DNA of 64,000 nt from Bacilli bacterium (GTDB taxonomy: Bacteria > Bacillota_I > Bacilli_A > RF39 > UBA660): assembly GCA_017441065.1 (NCBI GenBank), contig JAFSAI010000037.1, forward strand, positions 6,065-70,064, given 5' to 3'. Below are positions 17,797-55,354 of the stretch, in pieces. Both the position numbers and the translations under genes were made by a program. The notes below the pieces were generated by a model. That model ran no database searches. It worked only from the letters and a program-made list of their open reading frames with translations, and was not told where the DNA came from. Position 1 is the first letter of the stretch. Every line of letters begins with the position of its first letter.

Positions 17797-17825
17797 TTTA
17801 CAATCCATATACATTATGATTAAAT
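17797..17825 (+). promoter_or_regulatory. Promoter of the small-peptide (toxin-like) transcript, locus 1
   Basis: TTTACA (17797-802), a 17-nt spacer, then an extended -10 TGaTTAAAT (17817-25). Confidence 0.45.
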
Positions 17826-17911
17826 GAATATGGAAGTGTTGAATATGGCGTCGCTTAAGAACTAACTTAACGGGGAGGTAGTATTGATCCTGAAAAGGAG
17901 GTGATGAGCGT

Positions 17912-18016
17912 ATGAAAGTGAAAACCCTAAACAAGTTTTTATTAGTAATAATAATATTAATGTTACTGATTGTATTAGTAATAGAAATAAAAAACGCCAT
18001 TCTAGTATTAAAATAG
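17912..18016 (+). CDS. 34-aa hydrophobic peptide, candidate type I toxin (MKVKTLNKFLLVIIILMLLIVLVIEIKNAILVLK)
   Basis: Not in the ORF track because it is under 60 aa. A strong SD AAAGGAGGTGA sits 7 nt upstream. The peptide has a single TM helix and is a homologue of the peptide at 33499..33597, with the same flanking RNA architecture. Confidence 0.5.
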   Translation: MKVKTLNKFLLVIIILMLLIVLVIEIKNAILVLK

Positions 18017-18061
18017 AATAGCGCTGCTTAAAAATTTAGGCGACGTGAAATTCACGCTTCC
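17989..18061 (-). ncRNA. Candidate cis-antisense sRNA (antitoxin-like) overlapping the 3' end of the 34-aa ORF
   Basis: The minus-strand promoter is TTGTAT (18097-18092), a 17-nt spacer, then TATACT (18074-18069). The minus-strand terminator is cgctattcta/tagaatggcg (18023-17995) followed by U6. That stem has a G-U pair on the minus strand but a C-A mismatch on the plus strand. Confidence 0.45.
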
Positions 18062-18121
18062 TAAGAAGAGTATATTATAAGTTAGAATAATATACAAGTA
18101 TATTTGGTAGATAAAATATTC

Positions 18122-18144
18122 AAGAATGAGAAATCATTCTTTTT
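18122..18144 (+). terminator. Terminator of the plus-strand small-peptide transcript
   Basis: aagaatga/tcattctt 8-bp stem, GAAA loop, then a T-run. Confidence 0.55.
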
Positions 18145-32358: not shown

Positions 32359-33324
32359 TTACTTTACAAAGTAAGCATAATATTCATCAAAAGTAATATG
32401 GTTTTCATAAATATATGTTGCAGCTTCAATCCCAACATAACGATAATGCCAAGATTCAAAAGAGTAGCCAGTTACGTCTTCTTTATCTTCTGGATATCTT
32501 AAAATAAATCCATATTTATGAGCATTATCTAAAAGCCAAGCATAAGATTCTGTCTCATGAAAAGTTTTTTGAGTACTTCCTTTTTCAAACATATCAATAA
32601 CATATCCTGTTTGGTGTTCTGAATAACCAGCTCGAGCAGCAATTGAATCAGCATATTCAGTTCCTCTAGAATCTTTATAATCATTATATACAGATTGTTG
32701 ATGGTTATAATCTCTATAAGCAGAACTAACCATTAAATAATATCCTTGTTCATGTGAATCATTCCATAAATTCATGAATGCATCATAAGTTTCTTGAGTA
32801 ACTTTTTTACTTCCATATTCACCCCAAGCGTAAGTAGTAGAAATACTAACTAAAGTTTCTGGCTTATATGATTCATCTAAATAATGATATTTATTAACTA
32901 ACATCAATTCTTTATCTGAAATACTAGTCTTAGTTGTTTCAGTATAATATTCTTTATCAGTTTCTGTATTAATAATTTCTACTATATTAGTAAGAGGTTT
33001 ATCTAAATGTTCTTTTTGATAATCTATATATTCATAAAAATTATCATATATAAAATACTTTTCATTAACTAAATTTAAATAGTTATCGTTTTTTTCATTT
33101 TGTAATATATATTCAATTTCAGTTTCTTTGAATTTATCGAGAATAGTATCTATTTCATTTTCATTATAACCAATATTTGTTAACTTATATTCATAAGTTT
33201 TTTCGTATTGTTTTTGATTATATATCTTTATATATGAAAATATTCCAATACAAAGTAGAAGTGCTAATAAAATAACTATTCCAAATAATTTTTTTACTCC
33301 TTTTTTTATTTTGAGTTTTCCCAT
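32359..33324 (-). CDS. VanY/M15B-type D-alanyl-D-alanine carboxypeptidase, membrane anchored
   Basis: SAYRDYNHQ...SEHQTGYVIDM...ESWHYRYVG are the zinc ligands of M15B. The start at 33324 gives better spacing from AGGAG than 33330. Confidence 0.75.
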   Translation of the reverse strand: MGKLKIKKGVKKLFGIVILLALLLCIGIFSYIKIYNQKQYEKTYEYKLTNIGYNENEIDTILDKFKETEIEYILQNEKNDNYLNLVNEKYFIYDNFYEYIDYQKEHLDKPLTNIVEIINTETDKEYYTETTKTSISDKELMLVNKYHYLDESYKPETLVSISTTYAWGEYGSKKVTQETYDAFMNLWNDSHEQGYYLMVSSAYRDYNHQQSVYNDYKDSRGTEYADSIAARAGYSEHQTGYVIDMFEKGSTQKTFHETESYAWLLDNAHKYGFILRYPEDKEDVTGYSFESWHYRYVGIEAATYIYENHITFDEYYAYFVK

Positions 33325-33401
33325 AATCATTACTCCTTTATTATATATTTAAATTGTAACACATATGATAAGAACTTGCATTAATTTCTTGGATAAAAAA
33401 G

Positions 33402-33430
33402 TTGTTATCAAAACAAATGTTTGGTATAAT
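33402..33430 (+). promoter_or_regulatory. Promoter of the small-peptide (toxin-like) transcript, locus 2
   Basis: TTGTTA (33402-07), a 17-nt spacer, then an extended -10 TGgTATAAT (33422-30). Confidence 0.55.
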
Positions 33431-33498
33431 AATTTTGGAACGTTTTAGTAGCTAGGTGCTTACCAGCTTTAATTTATTAAAGTGGATTGGAGGTGGCT

Positions 33499-33597
33499 AT
33501 GAGTAAGAAAGATTTTATAATCCTATTACTATTCATAATAATATTTTCTCTTATTCTTATTATATTAGAGATTATAAAAAAAGCACCATCCCTATAG
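33499..33597 (+). CDS. 32-aa hydrophobic peptide, candidate type I toxin (MSKKDFIILLLFIIIFSLILIILEIIKKAPSL)
   Basis: Not in the ORF track. SD GGAGGTGG lies 3 nt upstream. The peptide has a single TM helix and shares the C-terminal (L/I)EI(I)K(K/N)A motif and flanking RNA features with the 17912..18016 peptide. Confidence 0.5.
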   Translation: MSKKDFIILLLFIIIFSLILIILEIIKKAPSL

Positions 33598-33650
33598 GAT
33601 AGTGCACCGCAAACCGGTAAGCACTTAGCATCTTCATACTAAAGTGTTCC
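33576..33650 (-). ncRNA. Candidate cis-antisense sRNA (antitoxin-like), locus 2
   Basis: The minus-strand terminator is gcactatcc/ggatggtgc (33605-33583) followed by U7 (33582-33576), again with G-U on the minus strand and C-A on the plus strand. The upstream promoter is weak or ambiguous (TAAAAT or TAGTAT as -10 candidates), so the 5' end is uncertain. Confidence 0.35.
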
Positions 33651-33730
33651 TTTTTTATTTTATGAAGATTTTTTCTTCATATTCATAATAACATAAAAGC
33701 GACTTATTAACAAGTCGCTTTAATTATCAA

Positions 33731-33878: not shown

Positions 33879-34811
33879 TTAAAGAAAAAATACATCAATT
33901 AACATATTATCAACATAAAAAATGGTTTCATTTATGTTATAAGTATCTCTAATAGATAGGGCAATCGAGTATTTAACTTCTTCAATAATTTTATCTTCTT
34001 CTAAACTTAAAACTTCATTATTAAAACTTAAATTAACTGAATTTTCAAGTATTTCATAATCTAATAATTCTGCGGATGTAGCCAGGTAACTTATCAGATT
34101 TGTTTGATATGTTGGGGATGTTTTTAATTTTTCAATAATAACTTCAACTTTTTCGTTTTTTGTATTTGTTATTGTTGTTACTGGTGTAAAATAAGAGTAA
34201 CCTTCAATTTTACTTACATAATAAGTGGTTATTTTAGTTATGTCTTTCATACTTTCAAGTTCATAAACTTTATTTATCCCATATGATCTATCTAATGTAA
34301 GCGGAAGAGTTTTTTTACTATTAGGAAGTTCTTTTAAATTTTCTCCCTCAACAAAAATCATAATTTTTTTAACATCTTTTATTTCTGTAAGAGAATAGAT
34401 AATTGATTCAATCATTTTTTCTTCATTATCTTTATTAATATTTAATAATTCTTTAGTAAAATTTATTTTTAATAATCCGTCATTTAAATCTTTATTAATA
34501 ATCTTAGTGTTCTTAGGTATTATTTTTTTAAAATTATTTGGAATATGACTAGTACTATTATTATCAATTGTTAAATTATTTATTACTTCATCAACAAGCT
34601 CTAATGAGTTTTTGCTTTTTTGAATAATTTCAAATCTAGAAACTAAATTATTATTATCAACGAGGTAAATAGGAATAGTTTTAGGATTACTATAAGTAAG
34701 AGTAGTGTTAATATTATAATTTTCTGTAGTAGGAAAAAAGTAAATAATTAAAAGAATAAGAAAAGAAAGTGATGTAATAATAATCTTTTTAAGAGCTAAT
34801 CTCTTAATCAT
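33879..34811 (-). CDS. GerM-like (GerMN domain) sporulation/germination protein, membrane anchored
   Basis: N-terminal TM anchor followed by two GerMN-like segments (LLKINFTKELL...MIESIIYSLTEIKDVKKIMIFVEGE). I chose the ATG at 34811, 5 nt after AGGTGG. Confidence 0.55.
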   Translation of the reverse strand: MIKRLALKKIIITSLSFLILLIIYFFPTTENYNINTTLTYSNPKTIPIYLVDNNNLVSRFEIIQKSKNSLELVDEVINNLTIDNNSTSHIPNNFKKIIPKNTKIINKDLNDGLLKINFTKELLNINKDNEEKMIESIIYSLTEIKDVKKIMIFVEGENLKELPNSKKTLPLTLDRSYGINKVYELESMKDITKITTYYVSKIEGYSYFTPVTTITNTKNEKVEVIIEKLKTSPTYQTNLISYLATSAELLDYEILENSVNLSFNNEVLSLEEDKIIEEVKYSIALSIRDTYNINETIFYVDNMLIDVFFL

Positions 34812-34876
34812 TGAAACCACCTAATTAATTATATTTCAAAACAAATTTAATAATACAAAAAAAGCCTTATTGGCTT

Positions 34877-35083
34877 TTAAATTTCTAATTCACCTAATTT
34901 TAATAATTCGACTACAGCTTGAGCTCGGCTTTTAACTCCTAATTTCTGCATTGTATTTGAAATGTGATTTCGTACTGTTTTTTCACTAATGCCTAAAAAT
35001 TCTGCAATTTCTTTTGTACTTTTATTTAACACTAGTAATTCAAAGACTTCTTGTTCGCGATTAGTTAATATTCCCTTAGTCAT
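34877..35083 (-). CDS. gerE: Spore-coat gene regulator GerE (LuxR-type HTH)
   Basis: LTNREQEVFELLVLNKSTKEIAEFLGISEKTVRNHISNTMQKLGVKSRAQAVVELLKLGELEI is near-collinear with B. subtilis GerE. Confidence 0.85.
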   Translation of the reverse strand: MTKGILTNREQEVFELLVLNKSTKEIAEFLGISEKTVRNHISNTMQKLGVKSRAQAVVELLKLGELEI

Positions 35084-55225: not shown

Positions 55226-55354
55226 ATGGCTTGTTCAAAATGTGAAAAAGATAATAAATGTCAAGGACATAATAATAATTCAAACTATGTATTTATAGTT
55301 TTAATATTATATATATTACTCGCTATAATAATAGGCGGAAGCTTATTTTATTAA
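55226..55354 (+). CDS. YjcZ-like tiny membrane peptide with a Cys-rich N-terminal extension (42 aa: MACSKCEKDNKCQGHNNNSNYVFIVLILYILLAIIIGGSLFY)
   Basis: RBS AAGGAGG. Same hydrophobic tail type. Followed by a terminator at 55354-55378. Confidence 0.55.
   Translation: MACSKCEKDNKCQGHNNNSNYVFIVLILYILLAIIIGGSLFY

Follow-up and report, generated by a model that had tools for sequence, protein, structure and literature searches.

The question raised by a ~320-bp cassette between a VanY-family gene and tRNA-Arg(TCT) in an uncultured Bacilli genome is what kind of element it is. The host assembly has 1.21 Mb and 25% G+C, and the window (the whole stretch of 64,000 nucleotides that was analysed) belongs to its contig C35. 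A sequence-only reading of the window had proposed a type I toxin-antitoxin-like module, in which a small hydrophobic peptide is encoded on the plus strand and an RNA from the minus strand overlaps the end of its gene. That proposal is supported as far as sequence comparison can test it, and the locus is probably a chromosomal module of this kind, from a family that annotation has so far passed over.

The locus and its peptide gene

The VanY-family gene (PF02557) is located at 32359-33330 on the minus strand. On the other side, tRNA-Arg(TCT) occupies 33807 to 33731, also on the minus strand, and runs in the same direction as the predicted antisense RNA. Between them, the toxin promoter (33402-33430, plus strand) is composed of TTGTTA at 33402-33407, a 17-nt spacer, and a TG-extended TATAAT (TGgTATAAT) at 33425-33430. 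It is followed by the Shine-Dalgarno (SD) sequence GGAGGTGG at 33489-33496 and by an open reading frame of 32 codons at 33499-33597, with its ATG at 33499 and its TAG at 33595-33597. Promoter, SD, and reading frame are all present where the sequence-only reading had put them. In approximately 45 homologues, the same promoter layout (-35, 17 nt, TGnTATAAT) stands at the same distance from the start of the long helix described below.

The antisense promoter had been regarded as less clear. It can now be placed at 33713-33685 on the minus strand (feature 33685-33713), where TTGTTA (33713-33708) is separated by a 17-nt spacer from TATTAT (33690-33685), with a TG upstream of the latter. Homologues carry TTGTCA, TTGACA, or TTGTTA, the same 17-nt spacer, and TGnTATTAT, and the position of this promoter relative to the structured elements is kept. 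An antisense start is thus predicted near 33678, at the foot of the 5' hairpin of the antisense RNA. By count, promoter-like matches at the locus are at chance level (5 found, 4.9 expected), and terminator-like sites are above it (3 found, 0.2 expected). A hairpin at 33696-33721, 3' of tRNA-Arg, is the predicted tRNA terminator and holds the antisense -35 element in its loop. A similar hairpin (AAAACGACTT..AAGTCGTTTT) is found at the equivalent position in many homologues. A 21-codon minus-strand reading frame at 33637-33572 was dismissed, as it is not conserved in homologues.

The product of the plus-strand reading frame is MSKKDFIILLLFIIIFSLILIILEIIKKAPSL, a peptide with a single predicted transmembrane helix, an N-terminal KK, and a GRAVY (mean Kyte-Doolittle hydropathy) of 1.78 over its 32 residues. 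The locus therefore holds a gene for a hydrophobic peptide of fewer than 60 amino acids with its own promoter and SD. Homologous peptides fall into several subfamilies of 24-34 amino acids, each with a K/R-rich N-terminal start and an Ile/Leu-rich helix of ~20 residues. Searches of Pfam and NCBIfam with eight variants (this peptide, the peptide of locus 1, and those of six other subfamilies) gave no match. Elsewhere in the window, at 55115-55201 and 55226-55354 (plus strand), two adjacent small open reading frames with strong SDs encode the hydrophobic MNCGNNGIGAAIILVLFILLIIIVGAYI and a 42-residue Cys-rich peptide, likewise with no Pfam match.

Among the matches listed, the hydrophobic reading frame is intact in 90 of 118 modules (76%), in genomes of ~25% G+C. 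These 118 modules were recognized by means of a conserved block on the antisense side. In the remaining 28, also among the matches listed, it is mostly the 5' part or the start codon that has gone, and the antisense gene is kept.

The C-terminal motif EI(I)K(K/N)A, which had been noted as common to this locus (33574-33597) and to locus 1 of the same window (~17985-18010), is real. It arises from dual coding with the antisense terminator. Its two Lys codons, AAA AAA, are complementary to the antisense U-run, and the Ala codon (GCA here; GCN across the two loci) opens the G+C-rich terminator stem.

Predicted folds of the two RNAs

The predicted toxin mRNA extends over ~225 nt of the plus strand, from the +1 (GGAAC) at 33437 to 33661, with its ends deduced from the promoter and the U-run. 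Plus-strand RNA 33437-33662 has a minimum free energy (MFE) of -69.3 kcal/mol (z = -6.6), which no shuffled sequence equalled. The dominant feature is a long-range helix, P1, in which the first 25-29 nt of the mRNA are paired with the last nucleotides ahead of the U-run. Its 5' arm is located at 33437-33465 and its 3' arm at 33616-33650, the latter interrupted by an unpaired 7-nt bulge at 33630-33636; both arms are defined by the fold and by covariation (in 45 modules for the 5' arm). An inverted repeat had already been recognized here, and it is present (33451-33469 with 33611-33629). The helix is longer than proposed, as 33437-33450 also pairs with 33637-33650, so that P1 runs from the predicted +1 up to the U-run. 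The U-run itself, TTTTTTATTTT at 33651-33661, follows P1 immediately, is the predicted mRNA 3' end, and falls within the stretch that the family conserves best.

Enclosed by P1 is a predicted anti-SD/SD hairpin at 33466-33498, with the SD inside. Averaged over 39 modules, the pairing probability of the SD core is 0.87. Of the first 28 nt, 24 (median over the modules) are paired with the last 60 nt in the MFE structures. With its SD sequestered and a long-range helix closing it, the toxin mRNA would have its translation restrained by structure, as judged from these predictions.

Conservation of P1 was examined in a MAFFT alignment (A1) of 45 full homologous modules from many genera. RNAalifold returns P1 as the only consensus structure, with compensatory double changes in 16 of 18 pairs. 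Of the P1 cells, 94.4% are paired, compared with 83.0% in shuffled alignments and 33-44% when the partners are slid. Double-change cells number 108 against 24.8 expected, and none of 500 shuffles reached 108; shuffle controls ignore phylogeny, which is mitigated by the slid-partner control and by the G-U asymmetry described below. The SD hairpin and the antisense 5' hairpin have no single register in MAFFT and were judged by pairing probabilities or sequence inspection instead.

The predicted antisense (antitoxin) RNA is ~103 nt long, is read from 33678 to 33576 on the minus strand, and overlaps the 3' UTR of the mRNA together with the last 22 nt of the open reading frame. It is complementary in full to the 3' ~85 nt of the mRNA, including the P1 3' arm as well as those 22 nt. 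Minus-strand RNA 33680 to 33574 has a folding energy of -36.4 kcal/mol (z = -6.5), again equalled by no shuffle. Homologous antisense RNAs share one plan made up of a 5' hairpin, an A-rich linker, a second hairpin (HP2), a variable spacer, and a third hairpin (HP3) with a U-run.

The 5' hairpin, HP1 (33664-33678), is GAAGA-AAAAA-UCUUC in the window, and its loop is GAAA in most homologues. By sequence inspection, its stem variants (CAAG/CUUG, GAAG/CUUC, UAAA/UUUA, and GAGA/UCUC) all keep the pairing. The single-stranded linker at 33647-33663, AUAAAAUAAAAAAGGAA, is complementary to the U-tail of the mRNA, and its columns are nearly invariant in an alignment of the antisense region (A2). HP2 (33622-33646), defined by fold and covariation, has a variable apical loop, to which the P1 bulge of the mRNA is complementary. 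The terminator, HP3 followed by U7, is located at 33576-33605, with its stem from 33605 to 33583 and the U7 reaching down to 33576. A minus-strand terminator overlapping the stop codon and using G-U pairs on the minus strand had been described from the window alone. It is present, and across homologues its G-U pairs number 22 on the minus strand and 4 on the plus strand.

The consensus structure of alignment A2 is composed of HP2 and HP3, with compensatory changes in 12 of 16 pairs and, within HP3, in 7 of 8. Together the two hairpins have 95.6% of their cells paired and 104 double-change cells against 26.7 expected, a number that none of 500 shuffles attained. The sequence-only reading had named its own test, namely compensatory change in the 5'/3' helix and the minus-strand terminator, and in the 45 homologous modules the outcome is clearly positive. 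The same reading described the antisense RNA as carrying a mimic of the mRNA 5' element. This is correct by construction, as the complement of the mRNA 3' arm resembles the 5' arm. Searches of Rfam with the antisense RNA, at the gathering score and at E-values up to 10, returned no relevant match, only tRNA and chance-level matches. Elsewhere in the window, a DUF3800-I RNA (RF02969) is found at 53729-53854 on the minus strand, with 64.1 bits against a gathering score of 44.2.

A strand test was performed by counting the pairs of each helix on the given strand and on its complement. P1, proposed for the plus strand, is 94.4% paired there and 84.9% paired on the opposite strand, with 80 G-U pairs versus 3. 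HP2, proposed for the minus strand, is 94.7% paired versus 75.6%, with 73 G-U pairs versus 4. The corresponding values for HP3, also on the minus strand, are 96.4% versus 91.4% and 22 versus 4. An inverted repeat maintained at the DNA level would give symmetric mismatches; the strand-specific G-U pairs therefore point to one RNA per strand being selected to fold. This asymmetry is the strongest evidence for such selection. It also accounts for the design of the module, since the same DNA segment self-folds as HP2 in the predicted antisense RNA. As part of the mRNA, this segment has little ability to self-fold, and its partner is the 5' arm.

Copies, distribution, and tRNA linkage

The host genome carries five copies of the module, on which a DNA search and a covariance model of the antisense RNA (R1) agree. 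The five score 71-96 bits with R1, and the window copy scores 75.7 bits. Two of the five are intact, namely the window copy and a diverged copy on contig C26 (C26:46020-46272) that encodes MHKKDLLITVLFIIIFLLLLLLFIVLI. The C26 copy differs from the window copy in the sequence of its P1 arms and of its minus-strand terminator stem, and both structures still pair. In the copy at C37:17676-17943, the toxin start codon has changed from ATG to ATA, a change that recurs in unrelated genomes (L073 and L093). In the copy on C6, promoter and 5' UTR are gone and the reading frame is shifted, and in the copy at C37:41590-41717 an internal deletion fuses the promoter to the middle of the reading frame. Three of the five copies are thus without a toxin gene and all five keep the antisense promoter and body, a count that is not comparable with the converse because modules were ascertained through the antisense-side block.

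Locus 1 (17797-18144) had been taken as the first copy of the same design. The design is shared, as locus 1 has a hydrophobic peptide of ~34 amino acids, 5'/3' complementarity, and a convergent antisense terminator over the end of its reading frame. It is a separate RNA family, however, since it gives no match to R1 and lacks the conserved TTCCTTTTTTATTTTATG block.

Beyond the host genome, 201 genomes, one for each genus of the same GTDB family, were searched at the DNA level, and 136 of them contain matches, which are frequently in tandem, with a period of ~350 bp, and frequently at contig ends. R1, run on the order-level sample, is likewise positive in 136 of 201 genomes, and a 1.2-Mb genome may hold as many as 19 copies. 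Of 301 genomes sampled at the class level, 17 are positive, all from the family of the window. The best-conserved stretch is 33642-33698, which holds the mRNA U-run, the antisense 5' hairpin, and the antisense -10 element. An exact-pattern scan of 185,579 species genomes found at least 120 loci. The listed pattern matches are in metagenome-assembled genomes (MAGs) from the gut of rabbit, deer, mouse, and human, under the labels uncultured Bacilli, Tenericutes, or Mollicutes. Arrays of 3-5 modules with mixed peptide subfamilies and the same antisense scaffold are seen at L048 (G062:C11:5800-8400), L021, L049, and L050. A prophage or plasmid origin was rejected, with no match in phage, plasmid, and IMG/VR collections.

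The modules are linked to tRNA genes. Among the matches listed, 26 of 126 modules have a tRNA 3' end 81-120 nt beyond the conserved block, where ~0.2 would be expected by chance. The linked tRNAs are always co-directional with the antisense RNA and, among the matches listed, represent 10 anticodons. In the host genome, the copy at C37:17535-17943 (L002) has tRNA-Arg(CCG) ahead of its antisense promoter, and no terminator hairpin lies between the two, so that read-through from the tRNA would enter the antisense RNA. A role of the module hairpin as the common tRNA terminator of the genome was considered and rejected, as the tRNA terminators are diverse.

Occupancy of the VanY/tRNA-Arg(TCT) site varies among genomes of the same genus. 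The site is empty (~110 nt) in G201 and G208 and holds other genes in G206 and G207. In G204 (locus L180), a locus-1-type module (MKAKTLNKFLLLIIIILSLFILVDKLKDVVLIVIE) is located at the tRNA-Arg(TCT) flank orthologous to window 33330-33730. The left border of the module was searched for an att-like copy of the tRNA 3' end; there is no repeat of at least 8 nt, and classical tRNA-site integration is therefore not supported. It is conceivable, if doubtful, that the modules are small, interchangeable cassettes without an integrase that settle precisely at tRNA 3' flanks. The narrow range of distances from tRNA 3' ends and the varying occupancy of the tRNA-Arg(TCT) flank would agree with this proposal. 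Where the antitoxin promoter is placed within the tRNA terminator or just behind it, the supply of antitoxin could be fed by tRNA read-through, and hence by growth-rate control. Were the cassette proposal true, up to 19 paralogous toxins in a 1.2-Mb genome could be addressed by one conserved scaffold whose HP2 loops vary.

Known systems, mechanism, and rival explanations

Of the known systems, bsrG/SR4 (BsrE-G-H/as-Bsr) has the closest design. Experimental probing of bsrG mRNA showed a long helix P1 between nt 1-35 and nt 232-262, an SD located in a stem of SL1, and SL4 coming after P1 (PMC3834814). The antisense RNA SR4 overlaps the 3' end of bsrG, binds first by loop contacts, promotes decay, and tightens SD sequestration (PMC3834814). 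The T1TAdb database lists 24 families, and 3'-overlapping antisense RNAs are the rule in the Gram-positive ones (PMC8594479). The module resembles bsrG/SR4 in having a convergent antisense RNA over the toxin mRNA 3' end and the end of the reading frame (as defined in PMC8594479), a P1 that closes the toxin mRNA, an SD within a stem, and a small single-helix peptide. By analogy, RNase III-dependent decay would be the expected route in both.

Unlike bsrG/SR4, the module shows no peptide or RNA similarity detectable in profile searches of Rfam, Pfam, and NCBIfam. Its peptides are shorter (25-34 amino acids), and their charge is N-terminal. Its U-run comes directly after P1, at 33651, with no separate terminator stem-loop, and its antisense RNA has ~103 nt, compared with 183 nt for SR4. 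The module is also located outside a prophage, and one conserved antisense scaffold serves several peptide subfamilies. As the sequence searches assign it to no existing family and no terminator follows P1, the module is provisionally filed as a new family of type I toxin-antitoxin-like systems.

Other families share parts of this plan. In hok/Sok and AapA1/IsoA1, the 5' and 3' ends of the mRNA also pair over a long range, and this keeps the primary transcript inert (PMC8594479). However, their antisense RNAs act on the 5' side, within the mRNA, whereas that of the module lies on the 3' side. Activation in these systems is by 3' trimming, and no such feature is seen in the module; hok further has the mok leader reading frame, and no overlapping leader frame was found at the module. 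The par system (Fst/RNA I-RNA II of Enterococcus faecalis pAD1) and SprA1/SprA1as are Gram-positive, with convergent transcripts, a peptide of ~30 amino acids, and a sequestered SD. Their functional pairing takes place outside the overlap, at 5' repeats (PMC8594479), in contrast to the module, where the complementarity is the ~85-nt overlap itself, including a structural arm of the mRNA. In addition, the module peptide has no match to any Pfam family, those of known toxins included.

Comparison of the homologous modules shows the architecture of the predicted RNAs, their conservation, and their covariation. For transcription, toxicity, and the order of binding, bsrG/SR4 is the model from which we infer the following course. 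The strong promoter would give a ~225-nt mRNA for a 32-residue, single-helix membrane peptide, and P1 and the SD hairpin would hold this mRNA translationally inert with both of its ends protected. The convergent promoter would give an antisense RNA of ~103 nt. The docking site of this RNA may be the P1 bulge, contacted by the HP2 loop, or the U-tail, contacted by the A-rich linker. Pairing would then spread through P1 and displace the 5' arm of the mRNA, and the resulting duplex of ~85 bp would be cut by RNase III, for which the genome has a gene (rnc, C34:1331-1705). The freed 5' end of the mRNA would be open to decay, with translation remaining blocked. A drop in antisense RNA would allow the peptide to be made and the membrane to be damaged.

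The two RNAs could also behave as described with a peptide that is not a toxin, e.g., a small membrane protein with a housekeeping or regulatory function, such as a modulator of a transporter or of envelope stress, that is kept at a low level. Many small hydrophobic bacterial proteins are not toxins, and the peptide subfamilies are conserved within lineages, as this explanation would have it. It is nevertheless unlikely. Genomes of 1.2 Mb hold up to 19 copies, tandem arrays combine different subfamilies, presence and absence vary at one site within a genus, and the toxin side frequently decays with the antisense gene retained. High copy number, arrays, patchy presence, and toxin decay are more in keeping with selfish or addictive modules than with a housekeeping gene.

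Two further explanations are very improbable. One is a non-coding repeat (MITE-like, or a terminator or insulator at tRNA flanks) that acts at the DNA level, with the reading frame and the antisense RNA incidental. The multiple copies, often at contig ends, the long inverted repeats, and the strong tie to tRNA 3' ends are what such a repeat would produce. However, the arms covary with no single sequence being kept, and the G-U pairs of P1 on one strand (80 versus 3) point to selection at the RNA level. Neither the open frame with an SD in 76% of modules (among the matches listed) nor the two conserved promoters agree with a non-coding repeat, and no target-site or att-like repeat was found.

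The other explanation takes the minus-strand RNA to be chiefly a trailer of the tRNA, or a product of read-through, that has its own function and overlaps the mRNA only secondarily. Approximately one-fifth of the modules (among the matches listed) come directly after a co-directional tRNA gene, and the copy at C37:17535-17611 has no hairpin between tRNA-Arg(CCG) and the antisense region. Yet ~80% of the modules (among the matches listed) have no adjacent tRNA and keep the antisense promoter and scaffold, and in the window a terminator hairpin separates the tRNA from the antisense start. The type I toxin-antitoxin-like module thus remains the probable identity of the locus.

To our knowledge, almost all described type I toxin-antitoxin systems belong to cultured Proteobacteria or to a few Firmicutes, and annotation usually misses such systems. 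The present modules are abundant in one family of uncultured, genome-reduced gut Bacilli, represented by MAGs from rabbit, deer, mouse, and human. On each of the two strands, comparison supports RNA structure with unusual clarity, and a covariance model is ready for annotating the family. The helix variants provide a natural series for studying how a toxin mRNA closed between its 5' and 3' ends is opened by a 3'-overlapping antisense RNA. The modules are also a concrete case for asking why such elements gather at tRNA 3' flanks in very small genomes. Near the module, at 33879-35083 on the minus strand, this genome of ~1.2 Mb encodes a Germane/GerM-domain protein and a 68-residue GerE/LuxR-type regulator, both members of sporulation-associated families.
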